From a virus (Duplodnaviria > Heunggongvirae > Uroviricota > Caudoviricetes): 64,000 bases of DNA. The DNA lies in IMG/VR virus record IMGVR_UViG_3300028561_000525; one strand, 5' to 3'. Below, one piece after another: positions 5,665 through 33,993 of this stretch; the stretch's first letter is position 1; each line of letters begins with the position of its first letter. A program made the translations under genes and the position numbers. Under the pieces are notes generated by a model, which worked only from the letters and a program-made list of their open reading frames with translations, was not told where the DNA came from and did not search any database.

Positions 5665-6198
5665 TCATTCTATTTTGAATAGAAAATCTGGAATGTAATT
5701 CATATCCTTCCTTAAATCGGGTACATCAATTTTTCTTCCGAAATGTAAATCCTCCCCCCTCATATTGTTTGTGAGCATTGTATTGTATTCATCTGCCGCG
5801 GCTTTTATCTCATCACAAGTGTGTTCCGGTAACAGGATGGTTATATTTCCACTTGGGCTTCTAGCAGTTGTACATATGGAGATGGTTCTGGTAAATTCGT
5901 GCCAATGGGTTCCCCCATCGTGGAACTGTAAAATAATGTTATTTGATGACTGCCAGGCATCAAATCTCGTTTTTTTGTCTTGTGTATAAGCTGTCAATAA
6001 ATACTGGTCTTGTGTGACATTCACATATAAATTGAAACTAACTTCATCCCTGTTTATTTCTATTTCCCCGTGTCTCATAGGTTCCGGTAGAAGCAGTCTT
6101 ACATTTCCGCTTACTTCCTCAAACATATGTCTATCAAACATAAATTGTGCCGTTGTTTTATATTTGTCTCTTGTTTTATGTATTTCACATACTACCAT
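5665..6198 (-). CDS. hypothetical protein with the C-terminal DFLFKIE tail (LFEI-tail family member)
   Basis: 177 aa ORF with a 14-nt overlap with the dCMP deaminase gene. The C-terminus is ...NYIPDFLFKIE. Confidence 0.5.
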   Translation of the reverse strand: MVVCEIHKTRDKYKTTAQFMFDRHMFEEVSGNVRLLLPEPMRHGEIEINRDEVSFNLYVNVTQDQYLLTAYTQDKKTRFDAWQSSNNIILQFHDGGTHWHEFTRTISICTTARSPSGNITILLPEHTCDEIKAAADEYNTMLTNNMRGEDLHFGRKIDVPDLRKDMNYIPDFLFKIE

Positions 6199-6703
6199 AA
6201 TATTTCCTCACAACTATTCCACTTTGCATTATAAGATATTCCGATGTTTTGTCGTATGTCTCAAGACTTGTGACAACAATTTCGATAATACCTGCGTTGA
6301 TAATTTCCACAAGACAAGGTGTACAGGGTATGGGGCAGTTACAATACATTGTCGCCCCTTTCACGGCTATACCGTGTCGAGCGGCATTGATGAGGGCGTT
6401 TCGTTCCCCGTGGCCGGCGATACAATACTCAAGCCCCTGACCACTTTCATACCCCATCACTTTTCTCGGACACTTCCCCTGTCTCACTTTCTCTGGAAAA
6501 TCATATTCCAGAGAATGATCTTTCCCCCATCTTTCATCACAGGGGGGAACTCCCCTTGGGGGCCCATTGTATCCGGTGGAGATAATGGACTTGTCCAAAA
6601 CGATGATTGCCCCAATTTTTCTTGAAAGACATTGACTGTTTTGTGCGATTGATATGGTCAGACCACGAAAGTAGCTATCCCATCTTATTAGTGATTTGTT
6701 CAT
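6185..6703 (-). CDS. dCMP deaminase (deoxycytidylate deaminase, cytidine/deoxycytidylate deaminase zinc-binding fold)
   Basis: The HAERNALINAARHG...CNCPIPCTPC zinc-binding H(A/C)E and PCxxC motifs. Confidence 0.85.
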   Translation of the reverse strand: MNKSLIRWDSYFRGLTISIAQNSQCLSRKIGAIIVLDKSIISTGYNGPPRGVPPCDERWGKDHSLEYDFPEKVRQGKCPRKVMGYESGQGLEYCIAGHGERNALINAARHGIAVKGATMYCNCPIPCTPCLVEIINAGIIEIVVTSLETYDKTSEYLIMQSGIVVRKYYGSM

Positions 6704-6750
6704 ATGACACCTCTTTACAAATTATATCACACGGGGGAAGGAAAGTAAAC

Positions 6751-6769
6751 GGGGGGAATTGATCCCCCC
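6751..6769. other. GC hairpin GGGGGGA-ATTGA-TCCCCCC between the minus-strand genes
   Basis: 7-bp stem read in the sequence. Weak terminator candidate for 6783-6986(-). Confidence 0.35.
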
Positions 6770-6782
6770 GCCTGTAAGAAAA

Positions 6783-6986
6783 CTACTTCTTACCAAGGAT
6801 TTCTTTGATTTTCTCCACGGCCGCTTTTACCGCCGCCTCATCAACCTTACCGCTGATGAGTTCATCCAGTACAGCCATAACGGCGACAAACTTTACCTTG
6901 TTATTTCTCCATACAAGGAAAAGACCCACGGCCACGGCTACAGCCACAACGGCTACAGCCACGAGAATGTTGAAAGGATTAAACAT
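6783..6986 (-). CDS. small membrane protein (one TM plus an amphipathic tail)
   Basis: MFNPFNILVAVAVVAVAVAVGLFLVW... The antisense 6759-7091(+) His/Gly-repeat ORF is judged spurious. Confidence 0.4.
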   Translation of the reverse strand: MFNPFNILVAVAVVAVAVAVGLFLVWRNNKVKFVAVMAVLDELISGKVDEAAVKAAVEKIKEILGKK

Positions 6987-7109
6987 AAGTTCATACCTCC
7001 GCTTCTTATTTTCGGTGGATCTCCACCAAACGATCTTTCACCTATATTTATGATAAATAATAATGTTATTTACGCAATCCCCCCGCCGTGATATAATATA
7101 GGAGTAGAT

Positions 7110-7274
7110 ATGTTCAAACAAAAATCCGTATATGATCCAGCTGGTTATTATAATATCAAGGTAAAATCCACCGCAAAAATAAACCCCAAAAAGAAAACTG
7201 TGGAAATTTACTTTGGTGAAGATTTGCGCTACCACTTTGAAGTGGATAAGATAGTGGAAATAAAGGAGAAATAA
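7110..7274 (+). CDS. hypothetical small protein (54 aa), first gene of the plus-strand block
   Basis: ATG 7110 preceded by GGAGTAGAT, with TATAAT at 7092-7097. Below the ORF-track size cutoff. Confidence 0.35.
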   Translation: MFKQKSVYDPAGYYNIKVKSTAKINPKKKTVEIYFGEDLRYHFEVDKIVEIKEK

Positions 7275-7275
7275 G

Positions 7276-7494
7276 ATGTTCATAGAATATAAAAACAGTA
7301 TTGTGAATTTATATCAGGTCTGTGAAATGAAAAAGATTGATACAGCCCGTGATAATTACTTTACAATTGTCTTTTATATCCCCAACGACAAGATTTATTG
7401 GTCGTTCAAAACGATGGAAGATCGTGACAAAATGTGGGAAAGAATAAGATTTGCCATAACCGCGTATTTACTTGTAAGAGAAGATGTGATATAA
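7276..7494 (+). CDS. hypothetical protein (72 aa)
   Basis: RBS AAGGAGAAATAAG, 1 nt after the previous stop. Confidence 0.4.
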   Translation: MFIEYKNSIVNLYQVCEMKKIDTARDNYFTIVFYIPNDKIYWSFKTMEDRDKMWERIRFAITAYLLVREDVI

Positions 7495-7495
7495 T

Positions 7496-7687
7496 ATGAA
7501 GAAAATATTATGTTTTTTGTTTCACCGAGGGCATTGGAGAGATTTTCCTATAGCCGGTATGGACGGTAGTGGTAAACAAAACAGATTTATCACTATCGGT
7601 GACCTTGTTGTTTGTCTGAAATGCAACAGGGTAGTTTTTCGGCCATTGAATAGTTTTGGCATTCCAAAGAAAGATAATGTAAAATGA
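7496..7687 (+). CDS. hypothetical protein (63 aa)
   Basis: Tightly coupled to the upstream ORF. Confidence 0.35.
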   Translation: MKKILCFLFHRGHWRDFPIAGMDGSGKQNRFITIGDLVVCLKCNRVVFRPLNSFGIPKKDNVK

Positions 7688-7822
7688 GACTATTTTATCT
7701 TTTAATCAAAAGTATTATTACAACCTTTTGGGGGGGTATGATAATGATTATCTACCTCATATCGGCAATAGGATTAGCCAGTTTTTTGATATATCTATTG
7801 AAATCAGGGAGCTTGAAATGAT

Positions 7823-8071
7823 ATGTTACAAAGGTTAATCGTCAACGAAGTTGAGAAGTGTGAATGTAAAATAAAAGAAGCTTTGAGAGAATTGAGAGAT
7901 AGAGTGGGATTGATACCACACAGTATTGAAATTGAATTATTCTGGAATTCGAAAGAACAAACAAACAGAAGCGGTGTAAGAAACAACGGTGACCCCTTTG
8001 AAGATATTTTACGGGTTCACATAAGCCTGAAGAAAGAAAACAAATCGAGATTTCCTCATAAGGAAGAGTAA
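7823..8071 (+). CDS. hypothetical protein (82 aa)
   Basis: ORF in the dense plus-strand operon. Confidence 0.4.
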   Translation: MLQRLIVNEVEKCECKIKEALRELRDRVGLIPHSIEIELFWNSKEQTNRSGVRNNGDPFEDILRVHISLKKENKSRFPHKEE

Positions 8072-8072
8072 G

Positions 8073-8309
8073 ATGTTTGATGATATAACGGGAAAAGACA
8101 AGAAAATAGATGTTCGACAACCTTACCATCTTGATATCTATTGCCCTATCTGTTCATCTGACAACCTGACATTGATGTCAACAATCAGTTCCACCCATAA
8201 TCCAAATAATCCAACCACAGACCGCATAACCGTGTTTGAATATATTTGTAATTATTGTCTTTCAAGTTTTATTATGGATGTGAGGATTTTTGTCTCGCCC
8301 AAAAAATAG
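8073..8309 (+). CDS. zinc-ribbon protein, MFDDI paralog 1
   Basis: MFDDITGKDKK...CPICSSDNL...CNYC. Starts 2 nt after the previous stop. Confidence 0.45.
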   Translation: MFDDITGKDKKIDVRQPYHLDIYCPICSSDNLTLMSTISSTHNPNNPTTDRITVFEYICNYCLSSFIMDVRIFVSPKK

Positions 8310-8320
8310 GAGAATATAAA

Positions 8321-8563
8321 ATGTTTGATGATATTGTGAATAAAAAGAGTGGGCCGGAAAGACATAGCCTCATTATGAAAATTGTATGCCCAAAGTGCGG
8401 CTGTGATGATATCTTATTGATAAAAGATAGAGCTTATGGTAAGCCCGCAGCAGATGGGAAGGTATACGATGTTTCAACTCTTGTTTTTTGCTCGAATTGC
8501 GACCAAGAGTTTATAGTATTTGTTTCGACTACCCCACTTGAAAATAAGGAAGAGAAAAAATGA
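8321..8563 (+). CDS. zinc-ribbon protein, MFDDI paralog 2
   Basis: Internal ATG of track ORF 8255-8563 with RBS AGGAGAATATAAAATG. MFDDIVNKK...CPKCGCDD...CSNCDQ. Confidence 0.45.
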   Translation: MFDDIVNKKSGPERHSLIMKIVCPKCGCDDILLIKDRAYGKPAADGKVYDVSTLVFCSNCDQEFIVFVSTTPLENKEEKK

Positions 8564-8790
8564 AAGTATCATTTACAAAAAGATTTGAGAAAGACGAGGA
8601 AACGGGAAAGAGATACCCCATAATGATGGCAAATGTGGAGTTTTCTATGGAAGAACTGGATAAATTGAGAGATGGAGATGACAGATTATCCAGAACGATT
8701 TCAAAATCTCTTTTGAGGCTATTCAATGAAATGGAATTTAGCGGTGATGTCACCGAAGATGATGATATAGATATAAACATCCAGAAATAG
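8560..8790 (+). CDS. hypothetical acidic protein (76 aa)
   Basis: ATGA overlap with the upstream gene. Confidence 0.4.
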   Translation: MKVSFTKRFEKDEETGKRYPIMMANVEFSMEELDKLRDGDDRLSRTISKSLLRLFNEMEFSGDVTEDDDIDINIQK

Positions 8791-8797
8791 AGGTAAT

Positions 8798-9025
8798 ATG
8801 AAAGAGAAGGAAAAACTGGAAACTTGTGTTGATGGGTTCTCCAAGGAAATGAAGGAAAAACTGGTAGAAAAGTATGAAGAGGGGTTTGAAGGTTGGGAGA
8901 CAATGCCCAGAGATGAAATCCTGATGAGAATACACTATCACGCCGGCCGTCTACTTCTTGGGTACAATGAAGAAGTAGATGTGGCAAATTTCTGTATGTT
9001 TTTGTGGAGGCAACACAGGAAATGA
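8798..9025 (+). CDS. hypothetical protein (75 aa)
   Basis: RBS GAGGTAATATG. Confidence 0.4.
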   Translation: MKEKEKLETCVDGFSKEMKEKLVEKYEEGFEGWETMPRDEILMRIHYHAGRLLLGYNEEVDVANFCMFLWRQHRK

Positions 9026-9172
9026 TTGTTTGTAAGTGTGGCGGAAGAGTAGAAGTAATAAAACTGGAAAGAGATGGAGAAGCCTACATTCCGGTTTACC
9101 AATGTAAAAAATGTCGAACCACTCTGAAGGCCACAAAAACGAATATAAAAGAAGAAAAAGAGGAGAAGTAAT
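9023..9172 (+). CDS. small CxxC...CxxC zinc-ribbon protein (49 aa)
   Basis: MIVCKCGGRVEVIKLERDGEAYIPVYQCKKCRTTLKA. ATGA overlap. Below the track cutoff. Confidence 0.3.
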
Positions 9173-9270
9173 ATGGAACAGGGAAAAAGTCTGGCCCTCT
9201 GGGCACTATACTGTTTGATTTTTGTGGCTGTTATTGTCGTTGTCGGATATATCTGGAAGCTATTTTCGTA

Positions 9271-9462
9271 ATGAAACTGATTGTGGAACATAAAGGACAA
9301 AAGGTGAGGAAGGAAGTTGATACAGACCTTTCACAGGAGAGGCTTCTGGAAATAATAAGGAATGATGTCTACTGGTCTGTTCAACCTACACCTATCAAGT
9401 GGTTGGCCCTCATCACGAAGGATAAAATCCATCTGAAAATGTGGAGTGATAATAATGTTTGA
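9271..9462 (+). CDS. hypothetical protein (63 aa)
   Basis: ORF in the operon. Confidence 0.35.
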   Translation: MKLIVEHKGQKVRKEVDTDLSQERLLEIIRNDVYWSVQPTPIKWLALITKDKIHLKMWSDNNV

Positions 9463-9841
9463 GGATATACTGAATTACTCGTCAGAAAAAGAAATAGTAT
9501 TTCGTGATTATATTATTGAAGGAGAAATAGTAGACGCAGACCCGAAATATATTTATATTCTGTATCACAACAAGAATGATGGTATAAATTATGTCATAGG
9601 ATATAACGGTGGTATCGGTTATAATTCATCACCAAAATCCAAGAAGGTTCCGTCCATAAAGCCGGGAGACAAGGTAAATATCGTTATCGAAAGAAAAGAA
9701 AACGGACAAGATTGGTTCCAAAATGTTTACAAACGGTGGGAATACTCTTACTGGAAGAGAAGGAAAGAAAAAAATAACCCGATAAAGGAATGGGAAAAAG
9801 CCCTTCGAATGATTTATATTGTTACAGTTGAAACTCGATAG
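9446..9841 (+). CDS. hypothetical protein (131 aa)
   Basis: ORF with a short overlap with the upstream gene. Confidence 0.45.
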   Translation: MIIMFEDILNYSSEKEIVFRDYIIEGEIVDADPKYIYILYHNKNDGINYVIGYNGGIGYNSSPKSKKVPSIKPGDKVNIVIERKENGQDWFQNVYKRWEYSYWKRRKEKNNPIKEWEKALRMIYIVTVETR

Positions 9842-9851
9842 GAGAATGTTT

Positions 9852-10151
9852 ATGCCAAGTGTTTATGATGTGATGATGGAGAAAAAGAAAAAATACAATA
9901 CACTCGATAATACATTTGAAATGTTCCCCGTAGGAACTTCGGTACGAGTAATAACACCTTGCCAGGATTTTCATTTCTTCTATGATGAAACGGGTAAGGT
10001 GATAAGTAATAGTGGTAAATATCTGGGCATTATTGTGGAGTTTGATGAACCGAGGCATTTTACAAATGGACACATCCAAAAGTCATTTGGTTTCCAACCG
10101 GATGATTTGATCGATTTATCTCTGTCAGACGATTTGTTCAAAATATCATAA
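9852..10151 (+). CDS. hypothetical protein with C-terminal LSDDLFKIS (LFEI-tail family)
   Basis: Internal ATG of track ORF 9819-10151, 7 nt after GGAG. Confidence 0.45.
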   Translation: MPSVYDVMMEKKKKYNTLDNTFEMFPVGTSVRVITPCQDFHFFYDETGKVISNSGKYLGIIVEFDEPRHFTNGHIQKSFGFQPDDLIDLSLSDDLFKIS

Positions 10152-10336
10152 AATACGATATTTTTGTCACGAAATCGACCTCTATAACTACTCGTTTTCA
10201 TTGGATTTTTGACTTGGCCCCGTTCTATGAAAACCCCTATATTTTCCGGTGTTTTATTGATTGGCACAGTAGGAAATACAAACCGCCGAAACCCTTGAGA
10301 ACCCTATGTTTCAAGGGTTTGTGTTTATACATATAC

Positions 10337-10368
10337 TTGTTTACTTGTCTGCCGAAATATGGTATAAT
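10337..10368 (+). promoter_or_regulatory. sigma70-type promoter with extended -10 (TGGTATAAT)
   Basis: AAATATGGTATAATA at 10354-10369. This 17-mer-plus-hexamer context recurs at five other sites. Confidence 0.5.
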
Positions 10369-10395
10369 AATACAAATAAAAGTGTGGAGGATATT

Positions 10396-10755
10396 ATGAT
10401 ACTTGACCCCTTGATGCTTCTTGTCACATTTCTTGTTGTCTGGCTTCTCTTTTTGGTTTTTCTCTGTATACGGTGCTGGTGGGTCTACAGGAAATATAGT
10501 ACCTATGGTACGGCCGCACAGGTTTATTTTATCCAGCTGGCCGAAAAAATAAAATCGGCCGATGATATCAAAAATCTTCCTTCGGAAGAAGAACTCGATT
10601 ATGTTTTCCAGAAAGTTTTGTGGAGCTTCAACCGGATGCTCTGGAATATCGGGGTATGGAATATGGAACAGATGGTTTACGATGTCGAGAAATATCGGGA
10701 AGTGATGGAATGGAAAGATTGGCAGGTAAACTGGCATTATGATGAAAATAACTGA
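10396..10755 (+). CDS. membrane protein (N-terminal TM, 119 aa)
   Basis: RBS GGAGGATATTATG. MILDPLMLLVTFLVVWLLFLVFLCI... Confidence 0.45.
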   Translation: MILDPLMLLVTFLVVWLLFLVFLCIRCWWVYRKYSTYGTAAQVYFIQLAEKIKSADDIKNLPSEEELDYVFQKVLWSFNRMLWNIGVWNMEQMVYDVEKYREVMEWKDWQVNWHYDENN

Positions 10756-10883
10756 CAGAAGGGGTTCGTGGACAATTGTTGAGTGGAAGTGCTGTGGAAA
10801 TCTGTGGCAATTGATACTCACACCGAAATTTCCCGACAGGGCGAACTGGAACCCTGTGTGCCCAAATTGTGGAAAGACTATAA

Positions 10884-11093
10884 ATGGAAAAAAGATACCT
10901 GATAAAAGTAGTTAGCTATTCCGAAAGGGGTGCGTGGTATAAAGACAAGATAGGAGAATCTTTTTTTGTAAGAGATTATGCCTACGCTCCCGATGAATAT
11001 TTTGTCCTTCTTCACAGTAGTCACGGTTTTCACAAGAAGGATGTAGAGATTATTCTTGAAAGTACCGTAGATGATAAACTGTTTGAGGTATAA
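10884..11093 (+). CDS. small beta-rich protein, tandem paralog 1 (ends ...VDDKLFEV)
   Basis: KVVSYSERGAWYKDKIGESFFV..., shared with the next paralogs. Confidence 0.5.
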   Translation: MEKRYLIKVVSYSERGAWYKDKIGESFFVRDYAYAPDEYFVLLHSSHGFHKKDVEIILESTVDDKLFEV

Positions 11094-11095
11094 AA

Positions 11096-11305
11096 TTGAA
11101 AGTCAAAATTATAAAGGCGAAAAAAGAGGCCGCTTGGTATGCCGATAAAATCGGTAATGTCTTTGAGGTGAAAGAAGATCCTACCGATCTTCGTTATTAT
11201 GTGAGGGCGGACGGTAGTTATGGCTTTATACGAAAAGAAGATGTTATTCTTATAGGGGAGCTCGCGGACAAATTTGTCCTTGACCCCAAATTATTTGAAA
11301 TATAA
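11096..11305 (+). CDS. tandem paralog 2 (ends ...LDPKLFEI)
   Basis: KIIKAKKEAAWYADKIGNVFEV... Confidence 0.5.
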   Translation: MKVKIIKAKKEAAWYADKIGNVFEVKEDPTDLRYYVRADGSYGFIRKEDVILIGELADKFVLDPKLFEI

Positions 11306-11317
11306 TAGGAGAGGCTT

Positions 11318-11503
11318 ATGAAAAAGAAAGAAAAGAAAGTAAAATATCCCAATACGATGTATGTGGTGAAAGAAGATGATGGTGAAGGATACTATTTTTT
11401 GGCAGATGATGATCCAGATAGTATCGAGGACGGGGAAGTAGCAATTTATCAGCTTGTCGATGTCAAACAGAAGAAAACAACCAGAACTGTATCCTTTCAA
11501 TAG
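11318..11503 (+). CDS. hypothetical acidic protein (61 aa)
   Basis: RBS GGAGAGGCTTATG. Confidence 0.35.
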   Translation: MKKKEKKVKYPNTMYVVKEDDGEGYYFLADDDPDSIEDGEVAIYQLVDVKQKKTTRTVSFQ

Positions 11504-11506
11504 AAA

Positions 11507-11731
11507 GTGATTGAAATGAAAACTGTGAAAACTATCAAACAAGTCCTCCTGGCGGGCCATAATCTTGTGAAAGAGGGGTCAATACTGGATGTTTATGATA
11601 CTCCATACTTCACCAAAGCGGGTGTCAAATACTACGAAATAGTCACATCCGGTAAAAGAAAGTTCATTCTGGCTGAGTTTTGTGTGCCCACGACAAAATA
11701 CTTTCTTGATGAGAGCCTATTTGAGATATGA
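11507..11731 (+). CDS. tandem paralog 3 (ends ...LDESLFEI)
   Basis: Same length class and the same tail. Confidence 0.5.
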   Translation: MIEMKTVKTIKQVLLAGHNLVKEGSILDVYDTPYFTKAGVKYYEIVTSGKRKFILAEFCVPTTKYFLDESLFEI

Positions 11732-11919
11732 AAGGAAAATTACTTATAATTGAAAAGCTCACTCTGGACGGTTATACTTGGAGTATAATTATACGGGATG
11801 ACCTGTATATAAACAACGATGCTACCTTTCCAACTATAAATCATACCAGACGTAATGCAACACAATGGGCAAAGAAATTTGGTGTCAAGATTGTGAAAGA
11901 AGATTGGGCAGTAGATTGA
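11728..11919 (+). CDS. hypothetical protein (63 aa)
   Basis: ATGA overlap. Confidence 0.35.
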   Translation: MKGKLLIIEKLTLDGYTWSIIIRDDLYINNDATFPTINHTRRNATQWAKKFGVKIVKEDWAVD

Positions 11920-11922
11920 GAT

Positions 11923-12147
11923 ATGAGAGTGAAAATTTTTTATCCCGATCTCTGGTATTCTGATTGTATGGGGAAAGTATTCCATGTAAATCCGGAAATC
12001 CTGTTTGATAGATCCGGTGAGGGATGGTATGAGGTTCTTTATAGCGAACAGTCATCACACAAGACATCCAGATTTGTCCGGTGTAATGATTGTGTGCCCT
12101 ATGAAATGTATGATGTCTTTCTGGACAAAGAGTTGTTTGAAATATGA
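11923..12147 (+). CDS. tandem paralog 4 (ends ...LDKELFEI)
   Basis: KIFYPDLWYSDCMGKVFHV... Confidence 0.5.
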   Translation: MRVKIFYPDLWYSDCMGKVFHVNPEILFDRSGEGWYEVLYSEQSSHKTSRFVRCNDCVPYEMYDVFLDKELFEI

Positions 12148-13846: not shown

Positions 13847-14104
13847 ATGAAAAAGATTGTGTTGTTGATTGTCGTGTTGTTTTTGTGTTCCTGTGGCGAT
13901 AGTGCGCCAGACCTGAAGCCCCAATACAAAGTGGGCGATATTGTCTGTATAAAAATAGACAATAGAAAAGGATTGGTGATGACAGCATCCTGTAGCAGTA
14001 AAGAGTGTTGGTATAAACTCAAATATGTGAGAACTCACGAAAACACGGAAAAATATGATACTGACCTATTTTATGATTACGAGTTGAAAGAGTGTGAAAA
14101 GTAA
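13847..14104 (+). CDS. lipoprotein (85 aa)
   Basis: Signal peptide plus lipobox MKKIVLLIVVLFLCSCGD. Confidence 0.5.
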   Translation: MKKIVLLIVVLFLCSCGDSAPDLKPQYKVGDIVCIKIDNRKGLVMTASCSSKECWYKLKYVRTHENTEKYDTDLFYDYELKECEK

Positions 14105-14535
14105 TGCAGACATTTCTTCCATACAAGAGTTTCAAGAAATCTGCCCGTGTCCTTGACTACAAGAGGCTCGGTAAACAGAGGCTTGAGGCCAAAATCATCA
14201 TTGACATAATAGAGGGTAGGGGTAAAGGTGGATGGAAACATCATCCGGCCGTATTGATGTGGATGGATTATCCCGATGCCCTCAAGGCATATTACAATGT
14301 AATGGTGAAAGAGTGGGTGCACAGAGGCTACAACAATACGATGCCCCTGTATAAAGTGGACACGAAAAAAGTCAGGTGGCCGATATGGTTGGGGCGAAAG
14401 GATTTCCATCATTCACATCAGGTCAACCTTCAATGGAAACATCCTCACCATTACGGTGAATACTGGAACCACAAGAAATATGTGCCCTATGTGTGGCCTG
14501 TAAGAATAAAAACTATAAAGGTGGTAGAACGATGA
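14104..14535 (+). CDS. pyrimidine-dimer DNA glycosylase-like protein (Pyr_excise family, MSMEG-type)
   Basis: MQTFLPYKSFKKSARVLDYKRLGKQRLEAKIII...GWKHHPAVLMWMDYPDALKAYYNVMVKEWVHRGY. This matches the remembered M(R/Q)LWSLHP..LD.K.L...R.EA...L...GYRNHP.L.RF pattern of bacterial/phage PDG-like proteins. Not checked against a database. Confidence 0.4.
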   Translation: MQTFLPYKSFKKSARVLDYKRLGKQRLEAKIIIDIIEGRGKGGWKHHPAVLMWMDYPDALKAYYNVMVKEWVHRGYNNTMPLYKVDTKKVRWPIWLGRKDFHHSHQVNLQWKHPHHYGEYWNHKKYVPYVWPVRIKTIKVVER

Positions 14536-16400: not shown

Positions 16401-16760
16401 GTGGAAAACTTTTTTGATGTAAGATATCTGAAGATTGAGTGGATTGGTAACCTGAAATTTTATATTTCAGAACAGTCTCACCGTGAGGCGTATTTCGGTC
16501 ACGGTAATAAGGGGGAGTTCTTTCTCTCATCCAACAAGGTATTGTTGTATTCTGCCGCCTTTCCAGAAATATACAGGGATGAGGAAACGGACTTTGGAAG
16601 ATTGGATCTGGTTCTGGCCTGCCGGGGAAGTGACGAGAGGGCCGACCTCAATATCCTGAAACTCCATTCAGAGAAGGAAAAACAGGATTTACTCCAGGCG
16701 GTAAAGGAGTACAATATGAACGGAATGTCATTGGACGAAAAATTGTTCGAAATTCCATAA
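16401..16760 (+). CDS. LFEI-tail family B member (ends ...LDEKLFEIP)
   Basis: GTG start. FFLSSNKVLLYSAAFPEIYRDEETDFG, paralogous to 17538 and 28471. Confidence 0.5.
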   Translation: MENFFDVRYLKIEWIGNLKFYISEQSHREAYFGHGNKGEFFLSSNKVLLYSAAFPEIYRDEETDFGRLDLVLACRGSDERADLNILKLHSEKEKQDLLQAVKEYNMNGMSLDEKLFEIP

Positions 16761-17537: not shown

Positions 17538-17888
17538 ATGGTGAACAAATATATAAGATTGAAATGGTTGACAGACTACTCTTTCGTCATTGAACACCAG
17601 ACAAAGAGGGGAATAAAATTCGGTAAAAAAGATGATTTTTTTCCTTCTTCGAATGGTGTTCTTCTTTATTCTGCCATATTTCCCGCCATCTACAGGAACA
17701 AAGAAACATATTTCGGTTTTTCACCTCTCTGTTTCGCGACTTGGGGAGATGACAAGACACAGGACAATACCGTATTGAAATTGAAGGATGACAAGGAAAA
17801 GAGAATGTTGACGGATGCTATTGACGAATACAACTGGACATTCTGCCCATCAAAATTTATACTGGATGAAAGGCTTTTCAAGGTGTGA
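17538..17888 (+). CDS. LFEI-tail family B member (ends ...LDERLFKV)
   Basis: FFPSSNGVLLYSAIFPAIYRNKETYFG. Confidence 0.5.
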   Translation: MVNKYIRLKWLTDYSFVIEHQTKRGIKFGKKDDFFPSSNGVLLYSAIFPAIYRNKETYFGFSPLCFATWGDDKTQDNTVLKLKDDKEKRMLTDAIDEYNWTFCPSKFILDERLFKV

Positions 17889-18517: not shown

Positions 18518-18817
18518 ATGAACTGGCACGAAGCGGTAAGGAAAAGTCCACACCACATTGCGATATTGAAATATGAAAAGGAATTTATAATAAGGACATT
18601 TCACCTTTACGGTAACGTCAATGTACTGGACGGCCACATAAGATATTCATCGAAACCCCATTGTACGGTGCAGATAAGGGCAGGTGAACACCTTCTTGAA
18701 GAAAGGGAAGCGGAACCCGAAGAGTGGCAAGGGTTCGACAGATGGGTGCCCTATATGGGAGAATTTCACACAAAAAACAACTTCTACCTACCGGAAGAAC
18801 TCTTTATAGTGGAGTGA
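18518..18817 (+). CDS. LFEI-tail family C member (ends ...LPEELFIVE)
   Basis: Paralog of 19105-19389: W(H/K)EA..KSPH.IAI..Y... Confidence 0.5.
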   Translation: MNWHEAVRKSPHHIAILKYEKEFIIRTFHLYGNVNVLDGHIRYSSKPHCTVQIRAGEHLLEEREAEPEEWQGFDRWVPYMGEFHTKNNFYLPEELFIVE

Positions 18818-19104: not shown

Positions 19105-19389
19105 ATGCTCTGGAAAGAAGCCACAGAAAAAAGCCCCCACAATATAGCCATAATGTCCTATTCCGTACAGGATATCAAAAAGACATTTTTCCTCTACTGG
19201 GCACCAAACTCCAATGAGAAACCCCTCTGTATGGTCAGGATAAGGATAAACGGTAAGATACTGGGAGAACCACGGGAAGCCCGAGAAGAAGAGTGGGAAG
19301 GGTACTGCAACTGGAAACCCTATTACCCATTCGAATCGGGATATGTTTTATCGACAAGTCTACCGGACGAACTGTTTACAATAGAATAA
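19105..19389 (+). CDS. LFEI-tail family C member (ends ...LPDELFTIE)
   Basis: Paralog of 18518. Confidence 0.5.
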   Translation: MLWKEATEKSPHNIAIMSYSVQDIKKTFFLYWAPNSNEKPLCMVRIRINGKILGEPREAREEEWEGYCNWKPYYPFESGYVLSTSLPDELFTIE

Positions 19390-19437
19390 TACACATTTTC
19401 CATAAATACAATAAAACACACAAACAGGGGGAAAACA

Positions 19438-19752
19438 ATGAAAATAAAGAGATACCTTACAGAAAGCAAGAATATCTGCAAATCGGGAACCATACTGATG
19501 ATAGATGTGGGGGAATACTCCGACTATTCCGTAATGGGTCTTTTCAAGGTTATAAAGTCCTTTGACCCCCTTGAAGAAAAAGAGAAATTTCTGGAAGAAA
19601 ACCCCGACAACAAGGGAAGATATAATTTCAACGATGACAAGTATATAGGATATCTCGTAAGAAAACAGTATATAAAGGACATAGCCTACAGTAGCCTGTA
19701 TATGGGAAGTGGAGCAACGGGTAACATCCAGTTCTACCCATTTGAGAAATAA
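19438..19752 (+). CDS. hypothetical protein (104 aa)
   Basis: RBS AGGGGGAAAACAATG. Confidence 0.5.
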   Translation: MKIKRYLTESKNICKSGTILMIDVGEYSDYSVMGLFKVIKSFDPLEEKEKFLEENPDNKGRYNFNDDKYIGYLVRKQYIKDIAYSSLYMGSGATGNIQFYPFEK

Positions 19753-27593: not shown

Positions 27594-27594
27594 G

Positions 27595-28033: not shown

Positions 28034-28474
28034 ATGAATAATTTTTATCAAAGATACATAAGTGAATGTCGAAGGATGGAAAACATTCTGAAAGATGTTA
28101 CCGCAGATTTGTGCCCATCCTGTGATGTTTTATTCCACGATGCCGATGCTATGGGGTGTTGTGGATATTGTGGGCAAATGGATGCCTATCGTGAGCTTTC
28201 AGGAAAATGGTTATCCGATAATCTTTTTTTGAAATTGAAAGAAAGATATAATTGGAATGAGAGATATGGTTTTCTCGATTTGAACAGGGGATGTAAACTT
28301 CCCCGTATATATCGTGCCGATATTTGCCTTACATTTATGTGTGGGGAATTGAGGAAGAGGCTTTCAATTACGGAACAGAAGATGCTCGACAATCTCATTT
28401 CCAGAATATTATATGATAGATATAGTGACCCCGATAACAATATGATGGAAATACTTGACAGGAAATTTGTATGA
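28034..28474 (+). CDS. Cys-rich protein (146 aa), possible YkgJ-like metal-binding domain
   Basis: CPSCDVLFHDADAMGCCGYCG...GCKLP...CLTFMCGE. Confidence 0.5.
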   Translation: MNNFYQRYISECRRMENILKDVTADLCPSCDVLFHDADAMGCCGYCGQMDAYRELSGKWLSDNLFLKLKERYNWNERYGFLDLNRGCKLPRIYRADICLTFMCGELRKRLSITEQKMLDNLISRILYDRYSDPDNNMMEILDRKFV

Positions 28475-28857
28475 AAGAGAAAAGGAAACTCTTGATAGAA
28501 GTGGAAGCCTGGACACTTGATAATAATCGTAACATTGTGCGTATTATCGAGCAGTCTCATAGAAATGAAAGATTTGTTCCGATGAAATCTGGTACAGGCT
28601 TACGCCCCGGCAGCTCCTTTTTATCAAGTAACGGGGTGAAATTGAAATCTGCTGGATGCCCTGAATGGAGAGAGGAAAGTAAAACTCTTTTTGTCAGAGG
28701 TTCACGGCAAGATTACGATACCATAGGTGTTGAAGTATCTCGCGACGATTTGAAACAGATACTTTTTGCCATCAAAGAATATAATATGATGTTCGGTGAT
28801 AAAATCGAAATCCCTGATTTTATTCCAGAATGGGATAGGTTGTTTTTCATCGAATAA
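28471..28857 (+). CDS. LFEI-tail family B member (ends ...WDRLFFIE)
   Basis: GSSFLSSNGVKLKSAG..., paralogous to 16401 and 17538. Confidence 0.5.
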   Translation: MKEKRKLLIEVEAWTLDNNRNIVRIIEQSHRNERFVPMKSGTGLRPGSSFLSSNGVKLKSAGCPEWREESKTLFVRGSRQDYDTIGVEVSRDDLKQILFAIKEYNMMFGDKIEIPDFIPEWDRLFFIE

Positions 28858-28906
28858 TTATTGACCGAAACTTTGTTTTATGATATAATATTGCTTGGAG
28901 TTGAAT

Positions 28907-29888: not shown

Positions 29889-29902
29889 AAAGGAAACAAT
29901 AA

Positions 29903-30130
29903 ATGGATAAGATCAGAGAAAATTCTGAACGGATTATCGAGGCCCTCAATAAGATTAGCGAAGAATATCCTGAAGAGAGATATCTCAAAAGTATAATCTT
30001 CACGGCTCTCGCATCCTACAATATTGGTGATTTGACGAATTTTCACGATATCACAAGTGTGTATATGCTTTGGCTCAAAAGAAAAATCGAGAGTGTAGAG
30101 CAGAAAGTGGATAAGAGGAAATTGAACTGA
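29903..30130 (+). CDS. hypothetical protein (75 aa)
   Basis: ORF in the operon. Confidence 0.4.
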   Translation: MDKIRENSERIIEALNKISEEYPEERYLKSIIFTALASYNIGDLTNFHDITSVYMLWLKRKIESVEQKVDKRKLN

Positions 30131-30330
30131 TGAAAAGCAAAAATAGCTGGAGAAATTTTCAAAATCATTGTGATATGAAGATTGACCGGAAGAGGGGGAT
30201 GCGAAACAGGATGAGAAATCTGGAAAAGGAAGAACTCTTGTCTCTGCTCGACAAACATCTCCCTCTTTATTACAACAATTTCAAGCATCTCTCAAAAGGA
30301 GATTTGATAAACTTACTTTGTGAGGAATAA
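30130..30330 (+). CDS. hypothetical basic protein (66 aa)
   Basis: ATGA overlap. Confidence 0.4.
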   Translation: MKSKNSWRNFQNHCDMKIDRKRGMRNRMRNLEKEELLSLLDKHLPLYYNNFKHLSKGDLINLLCEE

Positions 30331-30331
30331 A

Positions 30332-30859
30332 ATGAACCAATTCAAACCAAATTATACACTTCAGGATTTGATTGCCCGCCTGGAAAACCGCAAGTGGTAT
30401 GAGAAGTTATACTACAGAACCTATGGTATTATCCATAGGCTCCCACAGAATACCCGCCATTTTTTCAGATGTATCAAATCTTATTTCATTCGTGGCAAGA
30501 GAGGATGGGCGCCAATGGACACTTGGAGCCTCGATTTCTATCTTGCAAAAACCATCAGGGATAGTGTCTTGTATCTGAAGGACACAACTTGTGGTTATCC
30601 ATCAGACCTTCAATCTATGGACGAATGGAAAGAAATCCTTGGCAAGATCGCGTGGACATTTGATCTTATTATCAAGATTATAGATCTTGATATCTACTAT
30701 TTCGAAGCAGACGGCTTCGAATCCGAGGAAAGATACGAGAAAGCAAAAGAGGCGGTTAATTCATCTTGCCGTGGTCGTGTAGCCACAGAAGAAGAAATAC
30801 AGAAATACAAGGAAGGGTTTGCTCTCTTCCAAAAATACTTTATGTCACTATGGAGCTAA
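30332..30859 (+). CDS. hypothetical protein (175 aa)
   Basis: RBS GAGGAATAAAATG. Confidence 0.5.
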   Translation: MNQFKPNYTLQDLIARLENRKWYEKLYYRTYGIIHRLPQNTRHFFRCIKSYFIRGKRGWAPMDTWSLDFYLAKTIRDSVLYLKDTTCGYPSDLQSMDEWKEILGKIAWTFDLIIKIIDLDIYYFEADGFESEERYEKAKEAVNSSCRGRVATEEEIQKYKEGFALFQKYFMSLWS

Positions 30860-30862
30860 ACT

Positions 30863-31255
30863 ATGAGAAAAATTATCTGGACAATGGTTACGGTTTTGGT
30901 GATGTTCTTGGTCTTTCACGCTTATGCAAATGCACAGGAACATATCCCACAATGGGAGTTAATCGGTAAAAGTGATAAGGGTGAATTGGTATATGTGGAT
31001 ATAAAATCCGCGGTAACTCAAAAAGAACCGAAATATTCCTGTGCCTGGTTTAAATTCGCGGGAGAAAACGGTGATGTTTTAATTCGATTTTATTCCACTT
31101 TCGAAACGAAGGCCGTTTGTTATGATCAGGTCATAATAGGGAATAAGGTGTTATTACCTTTGGATAAACCGTGTTTGATTGTCCAGAAAGATACTATCGG
31201 GGAAGAAATATTTAAGTCGTTGATTATTCTTTACACTATAAAAGAAAGAAAGTAA
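30863..31255 (+). CDS. secreted protein (signal peptide, 130 aa)
   Basis: MRKIIWTMVTVLVMFLVFHAYANAQE. Confidence 0.5.
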   Translation: MRKIIWTMVTVLVMFLVFHAYANAQEHIPQWELIGKSDKGELVYVDIKSAVTQKEPKYSCAWFKFAGENGDVLIRFYSTFETKAVCYDQVIIGNKVLLPLDKPCLIVQKDTIGEEIFKSLIILYTIKERK

Positions 31256-31266
31256 TGGAGGCAAAT

Positions 31267-32151
31267 ATGTCAGATAATTGGTCAGCAAAAAGTCAGAGAG
31301 AGGAAATTCCAAAGTCCTTCTTTGGAAGGTTGTGGTATTTATTGAAACAGAATAAAATAGTATTGGTTGGGGTTTCTACGGCAACCCTTATTATTCTTCT
31401 TTTGATATTACTGATTTTCAATCCTATTGTGATTGTGAGAGCAGGTCAAAGGGGTGTCGTGATGAATTGGGGAGCCGTTCAGTCAAGGGTACTTGGTGAA
31501 GGACTTCATTTTATCGCACCAATATATCAATCGGTTTATAAGGCCGATGTGAGGGTTCAGAAAGCAGAGACACCGGCTGATGCGTCATCCAAGGATTTAC
31601 AGGATGCACATTCAACTATCGCCGTCAACTATCATATTGACCCCGATAGAGCGTGGTGGGTATACCAGAACATCGGGAAGGAATATAAAGAAAGGATTAT
31701 TGACCCACAGGTACAGGAAATCTTCAAGGCGGTTACTGCAAAGTTCACGGCAGTTGAATTGATTACCCTTCGTGAAAAGGTTCGTAACGAGACAAAGAAT
31801 CTTCTCAAGACGAGATTTCTTGAATATGGTTTGATTGTGGATGATATTTCAATCGTCAATTTCAAGTTCTCCGGTGAGTTCACAAAGGCTATCGAAGCCA
31901 AACAGACCGCGGAACAGTTAGCCCTCAAGGCAAAGAATGACCTTGAAAGAATCAAGATTGAGGCAGACCAGAAGGTAGCAAGTGCAAAAGCCGAGGCTGA
32001 GAGTTTGAGATTACAGAAGGAACAAGTCACGGACAAACTGGTTGAGTTGAGGAAAATTGAAGTCCAGAGTAAAGCTATTGACAAATGGGATGGTAAACTT
32101 CCTTACTATACTGGTGGTGGAGTTGTTCCATTCATTGATGTCAAGAAATAA
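31267..32151 (+). CDS. SPFH/band-7 (prohibitin/HflC-like) membrane protein
   Basis: N-terminal TM, then QRGVVMNWGAVQSRVLGEGLHFIAPIYQSVYKADVRVQ...EAKQTAEQLALKAK, which is the SPFH domain. Confidence 0.7.
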   Translation: MSDNWSAKSQREEIPKSFFGRLWYLLKQNKIVLVGVSTATLIILLLILLIFNPIVIVRAGQRGVVMNWGAVQSRVLGEGLHFIAPIYQSVYKADVRVQKAETPADASSKDLQDAHSTIAVNYHIDPDRAWWVYQNIGKEYKERIIDPQVQEIFKAVTAKFTAVELITLREKVRNETKNLLKTRFLEYGLIVDDISIVNFKFSGEFTKAIEAKQTAEQLALKAKNDLERIKIEADQKVASAKAEAESLRLQKEQVTDKLVELRKIEVQSKAIDKWDGKLPYYTGGGVVPFIDVKK

Positions 32152-32234
32152 TAATATAACAGAAACGGGGGTTTTGTGGGATATATCTGCCCCCGTTTCT
32201 GTCTATATACTTGATATTGTTTGTTTTCAGTCTC

Positions 32235-32263
32235 TTGACAAGTTACTTGAAATATGGTAAAAT
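32235..32263 (+). promoter_or_regulatory. sigma70 promoter TTGACA-17-TAAAAT (TGG extension)
   Basis: TTGACA 32235-40, TAAAAT 32258-63. Confidence 0.55.
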
Positions 32264-32310
32264 AATAAAAGGGATTAAAAAGGATAAATACAGGAAAGGA
32301 GTGTAAGTCT

Positions 32311-32535
32311 ATGTTCTCTTTCAACAAATATAATATGAGAACAACGAAACCAAAGGATTTCATCTGTGATGAGAAATTTCTGAAAGCGATGAGAATGGCT
32401 TTGAGGGATTTCGGCTTTACGGTGGATCCACAAATCAAAACAAATGATTTGATGCGCCTGTATCTTCAGGGTCTTGCCCTATATGACGATGCCTTGAGGG
32501 TGAGGGTGACAAACTACAGGGAGAGAATGAAATAA
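32311..32535 (+). CDS. hypothetical protein (74 aa)
   Basis: First ORF after the promoter. Confidence 0.4.
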   Translation: MFSFNKYNMRTTKPKDFICDEKFLKAMRMALRDFGFTVDPQIKTNDLMRLYLQGLALYDDALRVRVTNYRERMK

Positions 32536-33065
32536 TGCACATATCAAAATATTTACATAAACATTATGTTGGATTGGTTCGACATTATGTTGTGTTATTT
32601 CTGAGCTTCTTCCTTCTTTTTTATTTTGTTCACGATTTTTATATTTCACTACCTGTTCCAGTTGAGATAAAAGGAGGCGGGCAGACAGAAAGAATAGAAA
32701 AATTATTGGTGGCAGCCGGTGCACCTGAAAATCGTATTCCCGTACTGGTGGATGCGATAGCAACGGCTTCCAGTTCCACGGGGTTCAATCCGGCCCTACT
32801 GGTGGCCCTGATTAAAACAGAGTCAACATTCAAGAGAGAGGCCATTTCTCCGAAAGGATATAAAGGAGAAATGCAAACACCTTCCGCAACAAGATTTAGC
32901 GAAGTGAATATATTGTACGGTGCCAAAATCTTGGAAGAGAAGATGGGATATGCCAACGGTGACCTTCTTCTGGCTTTGGCCCTGTATAAAGGTGGAAACA
33001 ATCCGATGGCAAAAAGACAGGCCAAAGAGACATTCAATCTCTATAGGCATTTAGCAAAACTGTAA
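32535..33065 (+). CDS. lytic transglycosylase (SLT domain) with an N-terminal TM anchor
   Basis: ALLVALIKTESTFKREAISPKGYKGEMQ...ALALYKGGNN. These are the SLT catalytic Glu-Ser and AYN-like motifs. Confidence 0.65.
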   Translation: MHISKYLHKHYVGLVRHYVVLFLSFFLLFYFVHDFYISLPVPVEIKGGGQTERIEKLLVAAGAPENRIPVLVDAIATASSSTGFNPALLVALIKTESTFKREAISPKGYKGEMQTPSATRFSEVNILYGAKILEEKMGYANGDLLLALALYKGGNNPMAKRQAKETFNLYRHLAKL

Positions 33066-33077
33066 AAGGAGATTTTT

Positions 33078-33281
33078 ATGAGTTTCGAAACTGTGAAAAA
33101 GTTCTATGTGGAGTGGTTACATAGACAAATACTTTTTGTCCTTATGTTGACCTTCATCTTTGGAATGTGTGCCGGTGTATTCGGTGGTAAACTTCTTTAT
33201 GAGTGGCGAATGAAGCAGGCTATCATATTGAAGGGCTTTGTCTATGATAAGGAAGTTTTCGATGTGAAGTTGAGGCCGTAA
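33078..33281 (+). CDS. small membrane protein (67 aa)
   Basis: One TM helix. Confidence 0.35.
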   Translation: MSFETVKKFYVEWLHRQILFVLMLTFIFGMCAGVFGGKLLYEWRMKQAIILKGFVYDKEVFDVKLRP

Positions 33282-33582
33282 TATGTATTCGATTATTGTT
33301 CCTCTTCCTCAAAACTACAATGAAATGTATAACGCACTATGGGGTTGGGTTCCCGATGCCATAGTGCTCTTCATTGTATCATTTATCTTCTATAAGATAA
33401 CAACTTTCATTATAAGGAACAGCTATGATAGATTTCGATGATCCCTGTATCTGGTGTCAAGAATTGGATTGTGATAACTGCCCGTATTATCGTCAGTTGA
33501 CAGAACAGGAAAAAATACAAAACGGCGAGAGTGATCCCGTGATCTTTACGGAAGATTTGTCGAGAAGTGAGGCGGTGAAGTA

Positions 33583-33993
33583 ATGGCTTGGAATAATTAT
33601 GATAGACAATGGGTTGTTGACAGGGAAAATAGTGGTGCGCCCATTCACTTCTATCGGGTGGATGTCAATGTTATGTCACCAGACGGTAAAAAGTATGTAG
33701 GTTTTTTCGCCTATGCAAAAGATAAAATCTATACATCTGTCAAAACCCCCGATGGAAGGGATTATATGGTTGTCACCGCATCCTTCACGGGATTTTCCAC
33801 GGGGCAGAACACTCTTTATATCAGAAATACCCTTACGAAAAAAGAGGGATCTATCGGTTCCTTTGTACCCGAAAAACTTTTTTCTCTCATCGAGACAATA
33901 ATCTTCTCTTATAATGAGAAGGGGGGAATCACAAATCTCAAGGAAACACCAAAAGTAGGTCTGGATGAAAAATTATTTACGATTGAGGATTGA
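33583..33993 (+). CDS. LFEI-tail protein (ends ...GLDEKLFTIED)
   Basis: 136 aa. Confidence 0.5.
   Translation: MAWNNYDRQWVVDRENSGAPIHFYRVDVNVMSPDGKKYVGFFAYAKDKIYTSVKTPDGRDYMVVTASFTGFSTGQNTLYIRNTLTKKEGSIGSFVPEKLFSLIETIIFSYNEKGGITNLKETPKVGLDEKLFTIED

Follow-up and report, generated by a model that had tools for sequence, protein, structure and literature searches.

Why should a dozen small genes of a single phage, several of them encoding proteins with no resemblance to one another, all end in the same few amino acids? The question is raised by a stretch of 64,000 nucleotides (the window) from a tailed phage of the Caudoviricetes, IMG/VR record IMGVR_UViG_3300028561_000525, in which twelve open reading frames (ORFs) between positions 5665 and 33993 share an acidic-hydrophobic tail built around a Leu-Phe pair at the extreme C terminus. 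We report here that the tail is a portable peptide module rather than a remnant of common ancestry, that it probably acts as a docking or recognition tag, and that comparable cohorts of tagged proteins recur in other phages. The twelve carriers are listed below, with lengths in amino acids (aa) and with body families A to D as defined further on.

5665-6198, minus strand: 177 aa, distant member of family B, adjoining the dCMP deaminase gene; tail IPDFLFKIE at 5668-5694.
9852-10151, plus strand: 99 aa, family D; tail LSDDLFKIS at 10122-10148.
10884-11093, plus strand: 69 aa, family A (SH3-like barrel); tail VDDKLFEV at 11067-11090.
11096-11305, plus strand: 69 aa, family A (SH3-like barrel); tail LDPKLFEI at 11279-11302.
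11507-11731, plus strand: 71-74 aa, family A (divergent); tail LDESLFEI at 11705-11728.
11923-12147, plus strand: 74 aa, family A (divergent), matching public protein P0009; tail LDKELFEI at 12121-12144.
16401-16760, plus strand: 119 aa, family B; tail LDEKLFEIP at 16731-16757.
17538-17888, plus strand: 116 aa, family B, 46% identical to 16401-16760; tail LDERLFKV at 17862-17885.
18518-18817, plus strand: 99 aa, family C; tail LPEELFIVE at 18788-18814.
19105-19389, plus strand: 94 aa, family C, matching P0029; tail LPDELFTIE at 19360-19386.
28471-28857, plus strand: 128 aa, family B, matching P0002; tail EWDRLFFIE at 28828-28854, the least typical of the set.
33583-33993, plus strand: 136 aa, a subfamily of its own, with a stop codon that overlaps the start of an HslV-like peptidase gene; tail LDEKLFTIED at 33961-33990.

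All 12 of the ORFs that an initial annotation had listed are present at these positions with the endings described, although two start codons needed attention. The first plus-strand carrier could start at 9819 or 9852, of which public gene calls use 9852, and that of 11507-11731 is probably the ATG at 11516, from which the matching public protein P0008 (71 aa) is read. Public assemblies of the same phage include gene calls for ten of the twelve carriers, and 11507-11731 and 19105-19389 exactly fill uncalled gaps. Searches of Pfam, PHROGs and NCBIfam gave no function for the carriers, the sole family matches being to two PHROGs of unknown function, phrog_17910 and phrog_9181, both found with the family A protein 11096-11305.

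Aligned on the LF pair, the tails share an eight-residue unit, hydrophobic-(D/P/S)-x-x-L-F-x-(I/V), followed by zero to two residues before the end of the protein. A regular expression for LF-x-[IV] with zero to two residues to the end, run on the 2,616 six-frame ORFs of the window, returned the twelve carriers and three junk ORFs. Among 168 likely genes (~18,900 residues), LFx[IV] is found at 12 sites in the three C-terminal registers and at 8 in all other positions together. Shuffling residues within proteins gives a mean of 0.35 expected terminal matches and random sampling of internal 6-mers gives 0.28, for a Poisson probability of 12 or more of ~5e-15 to 4e-16. A position matrix derived from the tails scores the carriers on which it was trained at 18.8 to 25.2 bits, and the next-best site in the window, which is internal, at 10.5 bits. 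As an outside control, we used 2,098 ORFs (1.09 Mb) from 80 other phage loci fetched through denV homologues; the regular expression matched 1 of these, and none reached a matrix score of 8 bits or more. Paralogy among the carriers lowers the number of independent acquisitions to about four to six families, which is still far above the ~0.3 expected. Chance and composition are therefore ruled out as the origin of the tail, by two permutation schemes and by the outside control, and the pattern described in the initial annotation is borne out (P ~1e-15).

Looser resemblances to the tail are seen elsewhere in the window. The carrier 33583-33993 has an internal copy of the motif, FVPEKLFSL, at residues 94 to 102 (~33862-33888), where its last conserved helix begins; this is the 10.5-bit site, and it is kept in homologues (ILPEKLFSL, ILPENLFNI). 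It might be an intramolecular mimic of the tail. The ribonucleotide reductase encoded at 61989-63989 on the minus strand contains HLDDRLFCT about 25 residues before its C terminus, ahead of a Cys-rich end, a weak nonterminal match of 9.4 bits. The DNA methylase at 51201-52085 (plus strand) has the acidic-hydrophobic end EEEEEPVSAFFEVE, and the glycosyltransferase at 2589-3527 (minus strand) ends in YVAEKYFEVFKSIK; both resemble the tail loosely and fall below the matrix threshold.

At the nucleotide level, the Leu of the LF pair is written with TTG, CTG, TTA, CTA, CTT, and CTC, and the Phe with both TTT and TTC, while nothing is conserved beyond the stop codons of the carriers. This synonymous variation, together with the lack of conservation after the stop, indicates that selection acts on the peptide and not on the DNA, and it rules out an origin as a promoter, terminator or repeat lying across gene ends.

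Conservation of a peptide at the very end of ORFs is also what would be seen if the tail acted within the ribosome, the nascent chain modulating termination or reinitiation and so coupling tightly packed small genes. Many carriers do overlap the next start by 4 nucleotides (11731/11728, 12147/12144, and 33993/33990), and one of the phage contigs described below (L129) has many TTATGA junctions. Overlaps of this size are common among noncarriers too, however, and long spacers follow other carriers, as from 10151 to 10306, from 19389 to 19438, and after 28857, where a near-consensus sigma-70-type promoter (TTGACC-N17-TATAAT, 28858-28895) lies directly past the stop. Known arrest peptides require a fixed register, whereas the distance from LF to the stop varies here from two to four residues. 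With so variable a register, and with long spacers behind several carriers, we consider a nascent-peptide role very improbable.

The bodies to which the tail is joined were grouped into families by BLAST with the tails removed. Family A comprises 10884-11093 and 11096-11305 and, more weakly, 11507-11731 and 11923-12147 (four members). Family B comprises 16401-16760, 17538-17888, and 28471-28857 (three members), with a weak link to 5665-6198 and perhaps to 33583-33993; the body of 5665-6198 is weakly similar to that of 28471-28857 (E value of 4e-4), and an "EYN" helix is common to both. Family C comprises 18518-18817 and 19105-19389, and family D comprises 9852-10151 alone. The initial count of at least four families with unrelated bodies was thus about right. 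Profile-profile comparison of the tail-less families with hhalign found no relationship between A and B (0.2% probability), A and C (0.1%), or B and C (0.1%). The subfamily of 33583-33993 is, from sequence comparison, possibly a distant relation of family B, the hhalign probability against the family B core being 4.5%.

Structure predictions point the same way. In the AlphaFold2 model of 11096-11305, residues 1 to 52 form a small barrel with a predicted local distance difference test (pLDDT) score of ~90, and the tail region appears as short helices with a pLDDT of 55 to 66; the top Foldseek matches of this model are SH3 domains. The model of 16401-16760 has a mean pLDDT of only 65, with a beta-rich N-terminal part, a helix at residues 91 to 107 and the tail as a short helix at residues 111 to 116. 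On this low-confidence prediction, family B would be an alpha/beta domain differing from the family A barrel; Foldseek returned no meaningful match for the family B model at that pLDDT.

Homologues of the carriers show that body and tail can part company. Family A homologues from other metagenomic phages (P0013 to P0017) stop right after the barrel or carry unrelated extensions. Family D homologues that are 95 to 61% identical keep the tail (DLFKIS, DLFEIE, KLFEME, ELFEL; P0019 to P0021 lie at 68 to 61%), and more distant ones have no tail or other C termini. Two proteins with family D bodies, P0025 and P0026, share a different conserved end, ERSERF(R/M)(I/L)(L/M)DL, so that one body type ends in LF(K/E)I in one lineage and in RFRILDL in another. 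The tail can also outlast its body: it persists where bodies have diverged to 49 to 68% identity, as in the homologues P0005 and P0006 of 33583-33993 (49% identity), which keep VGLD(E/D)KLFT(I/V) (VGLDDKLFTV in P0006), and a distant family C homologue, P0031, keeps it as LADELFEIR. In family B proteins, a linker of ~4 to ~35 residues separates the tail from the last conserved helix. Unrelated bodies, tail-less homologues, retention under divergence and a variable linker are together the behavior of a short linear motif on a flexible linker, and the conclusion that the tail is a portable peptide module and not a remnant of common ancestry, as first proposed in the initial annotation, is well supported.

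The contrary view would be that all of the carriers descend from a single ancestral gene, the bodies having diverged past recognition while an essential last helix was kept. Small phage proteins do diverge rapidly, and within family B the tail may indeed be inherited, since the "EYN" helix precedes the tail in five members and, in a distant homologue, P0007, the corresponding place holds the tail-like FEQSLLNL with another domain after it. Such descent is hard to reconcile with the absence of profile similarity among families A, B, and C, with models that already point to different folds and to a tail not packed on the core, with the tail-less or differently tailed family A and D bodies elsewhere, and with the exchange of LF(K/E)I for RFRILDL on the same family D body. 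The carriers of other phages, which we turn to now, are likewise mutually unrelated (13 in contig L129, 11 in contig L147, and 40 clusters in huge phages), and we regard a single ancestor as highly improbable.

A search for the motif outside the window, which the initial annotation had suggested, recovered the same tail in two other phages. The first, a related phage, is represented by a 46.8-kb contig, L126 (Logan SRR23086390), which resembles the window in layout, with its minus-strand deaminase gene, its denV and its array of small plus-strand genes. The tail is found on at least seven L126 proteins, in the forms ILTDDMFKVE, IPNKLFEME, LPERLFEV, IDDSFFKV, LIDEGLFEI, ILDEVLFEI, and LREDLFEI. 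The first of these belongs to the counterpart of 5665-6198 (at 561-1271 and also beside the deaminase gene), and three of the tailed bodies have no similarity to any window carrier. The second, L147 (IMGVR_UViG_3300037245_000802, 51 kb), has 11 small tailed plus-strand ORFs within 8 kb (4338-11910), with the tail form (F/L)(D/E)(D/E)xLF(E/K/T/R)(I/L/V) and with bodies unrelated to one another and to the window proteins. No kinship between the L147 phage and the window phage was detectable in the 12 kb compared.

Other phages carry tails of a different sequence in the same manner. Contig L129 (JGI 3300041075 Ga0452204_001953, 47 kb), which encodes P0025, has 13 genes of 43 called that end in xRF(E/D)ILDL-COOH, all between 10001 and 18477. 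Their tail codons vary, the motif is never internal, and the 13 bodies show no pairwise similarity; no extension of this phage was found in IMG/VR. A DNA pattern for the L129-type tail matches just four IMG/VR contigs, and three of these, of 298, 351, and 548 kb, belong to huge phages. In the huge-phage loci (L131 to L142, 118 kb), 58 of 228 ORFs end in (E/D)PIx(S/D/N)RF(E/D)ILDL-COOH, a fraction inflated by the selection of these loci for bearing the tail. The 58 carriers fall into 40 sequence clusters and have a median length of 99 residues; the motif is strictly anchored at the carboxyl end, and Arg at -7 and Asp at -2 are invariant in all 58.

Like the window tail, the huge-phage tail occurs in arrays of small, mutually unrelated proteins that share one lineage-specific peptide with synonymous codon variation, and the two systems are linked by the family D body. 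They differ in sequence, in the strict carboxyl anchoring of the huge-phage tail, in its far more numerous carriers (58 in 118 kb), and in the 300- to 550-kb contigs on which it is found. To our knowledge the huge-phage tail has not been described so far, and a literature search on the tail strings and on the general idea turned up no description of phage protein cohorts with shared C-terminal tails. The window is one instance of a wider habit of large phages, that of placing a lineage-specific peptide at the extreme C terminus of a cohort of unrelated small proteins. It may be that large phages use such peptides as lineage-specific "address tags," each lineage putting its own on dozens of unrelated small early proteins so that one receptor reads the whole cohort. 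The tag would be swappable as genes move between lineages, since the family D body carries different tails. As receptor one could imagine a clamp, a protease, the gate of a compartment or a hub of the host. The arguments for and against this general proposal seem to us evenly balanced.

What, then, does the tail do in the window phage? That it is a portable, peptide-level docking or recognition tag we hold with considerable confidence, and we infer that docking is to a single shared partner. It would be a short linear motif forming an amphipathic mini-helix of about eight residues (a hydrophobic residue, a D/P/S helix cap, two variable residues, L, F, a variable residue and I/V), held on a variable linker at the extreme C terminus, appended independently to many unrelated small and probably early proteins, and tethering each of them to that common receptor. 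In the version that we prefer, the receptor would be the phage's own gp45-type sliding clamp, and the tail would be this lineage's form of a motif known from phage T4. Clamps loaded on replicating phage DNA would then take the tagged proteins along with them, and the bodies of these proteins, SH3-like barrels and alpha/beta domains among them, might supply activities such as DNA or protein binding, regulation or counter-defense.

T4 attaches LDFL(F/Y/L) to gp43, gp33, gp55, and ligase for docking on the gp45 clamp (PMC2988020, PMC6212786, PMC7892883); its sequences are EKASLDFLFG in gp43, PSLDFLYE(+3) in gp55, NTLDFLL in gp33, and EGLDFLFD, which is internal, in ligase (PMC6212786; PMC7892883, Suppl. 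Table 2). The C-terminal motifs are interchangeable and sit on divergent linkers (PMC2988020), and LDFLF binds gp45 as an amphipathic alpha-helix, the ligase peptide doing so with a Kd of ~10 uM (PMC6212786). Our own motif scan of 150 kb of the T4 genome returned exactly these four proteins, the C-terminal motifs lying 0, 1, and 4 residues from the end. The window tail is like the T4 motif in being a short hydrophobic-acidic peptide at or near the C terminus of unrelated proteins on divergent flexible linkers, and in its loose register, LF here lying two to four residues from the end. It may also be alike in form, since the T4 motif is helical when bound and AlphaFold2 gives the window tail, at low confidence, as a short helix after a better-folded core. 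The L-D...L-F signature, helical propensity, loose register and portability make the phage clamp the preferred receptor.

A clamp and its loader do appear to be present. The window is 96% identical over ~13.5 kb to a strain contig (L013) that joins IMG/VR contig L018/L020 at 100% identity, and in L018/L020 the replication genes of this strain can be read ~12 to 15 kb beyond the right end of the window. The gp44-type clamp loader is firm (phrog_168, E value of 2.6e-65; PF21328, Gp44_lid; RFC models). Directly downstream of it lies a probable gp45-type clamp (L020:4256-5011; phrog_223, E value of 5e-8), and this position after the loader is kept in six related contigs. A gp32-type single-stranded DNA-binding protein (SSB) is encoded at L020:8324-9274 (PF08804, E value of 2.9e-17).

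A number of points limit the case for the clamp as receptor. The sequence of the T4 motif, L-D-F-L-(F/Y/L), is not reproduced, since there is one extra residue between D and LF (L-D-x-x-L-F here and L-D-F-L-F in T4) and an additional conserved I/V two residues past the F; only 5665-6198 (PDFLF) matches four of the five T4 positions. RB69 also departs from LDFLF (PMC6212786), and the exact sequence of the clamp motif is for this reason lineage specific. The clamp call is one PHROG match plus synteny, to which searches of PDB sequences with phmmer and hmmsearch, and an hhalign comparison with T4 gp45, added no support. Contig walks over ~100 kb of the phage and its relatives, which run rightward through ribonucleotide reductase, RNase H, SSB, clamp and loader into a long tRNA-like array with HNH endonucleases and transposases, and leftward into a sugar and nonulosonic-acid biosynthesis cluster, found no homologue of DNA polymerase, gp55 or gp33. 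No function in DNA metabolism is recognizable in any carrier, and the tail motif is absent from the primase, RNase H, SSB, clamp loader and ribonucleotide reductase of the phage. The contig L147 has the same tail but no detectable kinship with the window, which a receptor supplied by the host, or one that is universal in some other way, would explain no less well than a phage clamp. Lastly, the huge-phage tail, anchored at the carboxyl end and found on a quarter of the ORFs in loci selected for it, has more the look of a general tag for addressing or turnover than of an accessory to the replisome. Taking the analysis as a whole, we hold the complete statement, a docking tag with the phage gp45-type clamp as its receptor, only tentatively and put it somewhat short of an even chance.

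The initial annotation had called the marking of many early proteins for one partner a new organizational principle. This was too strong in that the T4 motif on gp45 is a precedent, so the principle is not wholly new. What is new here is the scale, with at least 12 carriers compared to three or four in T4; the kind of carrier, small proteins of unknown function rather than a polymerase, sigma factor, coactivator and ligase; and the fact that other phages repeat the arrangement with different tails.

The lack of kinship between L147 and the window phage, combined with an identical LF(E/K)(I/L/V) tail on unrelated bodies, favors a receptor that different phages have in common, such as a host protein. 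The tail could thus dock its carriers on another hub, such as the host beta clamp, RNA polymerase, SSB-interacting enzymes, a chaperone or another phage protein, or it could sort them to the capsid, to a phage-made compartment or for export. The exact carboxyl anchoring of the huge-phage tail, with its two invariant residues, is what a receptor reading a free C terminus would call for, and the carriers are about as numerous as those of a sorting signal. The LF dipeptide anchors bacterial beta-clamp-binding motifs (QL[S/D]LF) and is common to the window tail. Like the window tail, these motifs and the PCNA-interacting protein (PIP) box, Qxx(L/I/M)xx(F/Y)(F/Y), are portable and often C-terminal, and they dock many unrelated clients on one ring-shaped hub. 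The likeness to QLxLF drawn in the initial annotation nevertheless fails on the defining residues: none of the 12 tails has Q at position 1, position 2 is D, E, P or K rather than L, and LF alone is shared. The spacing of the PIP box does not fit either.

The second likeness drawn in the initial annotation, to the SSB tail (DDDIPF-COOH), fails in the same way. That tail and the Phe-ending acidic tails of T7 gp2.5 and gp4 are likewise acidic-hydrophobic docking handles at the extreme C terminus, and some L147 tails, such as NFDEDLFEI, start much like DFDDDIPF. But the last residue of the window tails is I, V, E, S, P or D and in no case F, the I-P-F element is missing, and the logic is reversed, with one hub carrying the SSB tail for many readers and many proteins carrying the tail here. 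The gp32-like SSBs of the phage and its relatives (L020:8324-9274; L023:8560-9558; L029:1136-2101, minus strand) have a conserved acidic-hydrophobic end of their own, (D/E)LL(K/R)ELDEL-COOH, which is unlike the LFEI tail; in the window phage it reads DLLKELDEL and is reminiscent of DLDDLLNDL in T4 gp32.

Sorting to the capsid has further difficulties. The capsid-targeting sequences of T4 are N-terminal, and the carriers occupy a stretch of small genes that precedes the replication module and lies between dCMP deaminase and denV, which gives it the look of an early region and not of a virion module. No candidate receptor emerged from the analysis, and we rate another hub or a sorting signal as somewhat unlikely.

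The gene neighboring the last carrier suggests a different kind of partner. An HslV-family peptidase gene (33996-34541, plus strand) overlaps the stop codon of 33583-33993 and matches phrog_1040 (E value of 4e-14), HslV of PDB entry 1m4y (2e-4), and the NCBIfam HslV model (8e-4, below the model cutoff). The peptidase is of the proteasome-like Ntn type and has homologues in ~23 GenBank phages, mostly large; judging from its sequence (MSCVVG...), the nucleophile is likely the Ser exposed after Met removal. No HslU partner is found in the window. The pairing of carrier and peptidase is kept in a diverged contig (L017), where the peptidase is 83% and the carrier 49% identical and the tail is intact.

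The tail might accordingly be a degradation or recognition tag, by which an early cohort is marked for timed removal or is delivered to, or activates, a compartmental protease, either the phage HslV-like enzyme or a host AAA+ protease. A tag on dozens of unrelated small proteins would suit a turnover signal, and C-terminal hydrophobic peptides are classical bacterial degrons, as in the ssrA tag. The window tail has no resemblance to ...LAA, however, and an ssrA-like degron of the form ...(A/L)AA-COOH was rejected since no tail ends in AA; the tail may yet be a degron of another class. Only 1 of the 12 carriers adjoins the peptidase gene, and the distance of the tail from the carboxyl end varies by zero to two residues. 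HslV is switched on by the C-terminal tails of HslU, which form a short helix in a pocket and follow the pattern (D/N)-(L/I)-x-(K/R)-(F/Y)-(I/L)-(L/I)-COOH, with five of the last six residues essential (PMC6429459). Compared with the HslU tail EDLSRFIL, the window tail agrees at three of seven positions, having D at -7, F at -3, and something aliphatic at -1, and this holds for no more than the five carriers whose last residue is I/V. It lacks the L at -6, the K/R at -4, and the I/L at -2 that are essential in HslU (PMC6429459, Table 1), and its own register to the carboxyl end varies. The idea of an HslU mimic was downgraded after this comparison with the published peptides, and a protease tag of any kind appears to us unlikely.

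The gene content of the window and its relatives gives the setting of the tailed proteins. Minus-strand genes extend up to ~7 kb and resume from ~57.9 kb, and between them lie plus-strand genes that are mostly small; the G+C content is 37 to 46%. The recognizable genes, other than the carriers and the peptidase, are as follows.

Left end of the window: glycosyltransferases and a class IV aminotransferase.
6185-6703: dCMP deaminase.
14104-14535: denV-type pyrimidine-dimer excision enzyme.
Elsewhere in the window: Band 7 protein, lytic transglycosylase, amidase and radical SAM enzyme.
Also in the window: DNA methylase, GP88-family protein and kinase-methyltransferase fusion.
60390-61409: DnaG-type primase.
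61989-63989, minus strand: ribonucleotide reductase, with an ORF that runs off the window.

The window has no nucleotide relative among GenBank phages, but the same phage is present in many ENA, JGI, and Logan assemblies, in contigs of up to 143 kb (as in ENA ERZ27249274/ERZ27249275 and JGI 3300036953), and contig names suggest activated sludge. Because its clamp loader is ~34% identical to those of 2,362 T4-like phage records, the phage is a distant member of the T4-like world.

Several other features of this phage group were noted along the way. A paralogous pair at 36982-37269 (plus strand) and 61582-61941 (minus strand), 25 kb apart on opposite strands, is 43% identical over 82 residues. 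The ribonucleotide reductase is 739 aa long in L013 and 1,117 aa in a relative, L019, the extra length suggesting an inserted element such as an intein. Directly upstream of the RNase H gene, at L013:5037-5771, are three tandem paralogues of ~80 aa (MSKVRQYLTE..., MTKVRKILTE..., and MTKIRKVLTE...) with no PHROG match. The tRNA-like array past the loader was judged from translated ORFs (L020:1-2600; L021:5000-9500; L029:8900-17800), with HNH endonucleases interspersed and, in the relative L039, IS200/IS605-type transposase genes within it. To the left of window position 1, in a strain variant (L040:10662-18111), the sugar and nonulosonic-acid biosynthesis cluster encodes NeuB, a DegT-type aminotransferase, a hexapeptide transferase, a SPASM protein and several methyltransferases, and it prolongs the glycosyltransferase genes at the left end of the window. 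The content of this flank varies by strain, L041 having a resolvase in place of the sugar cluster.

Most small early genes of large phages are without known function or homologues, and a shared, transferable C-terminal tag provides a common handle on them. Its receptor, once found, would give a cellular address to a dozen proteins here and to dozens of huge-phage proteins besides. Should the clamp prove to be that receptor, the tagged cohort would be a bacterial-virus counterpart of the PCNA/PIP-box network, far above the three or four clients of T4, and would suggest that phages tether regulators or counter-defense factors to their own replicating DNA. If the receptor is a protease or a compartment gate, the tag would reveal a new viral program of timed turnover or sorting. 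Either way, so simple a sequence signature lends itself to metagenome searches and to use as a portable peptide for targeting.

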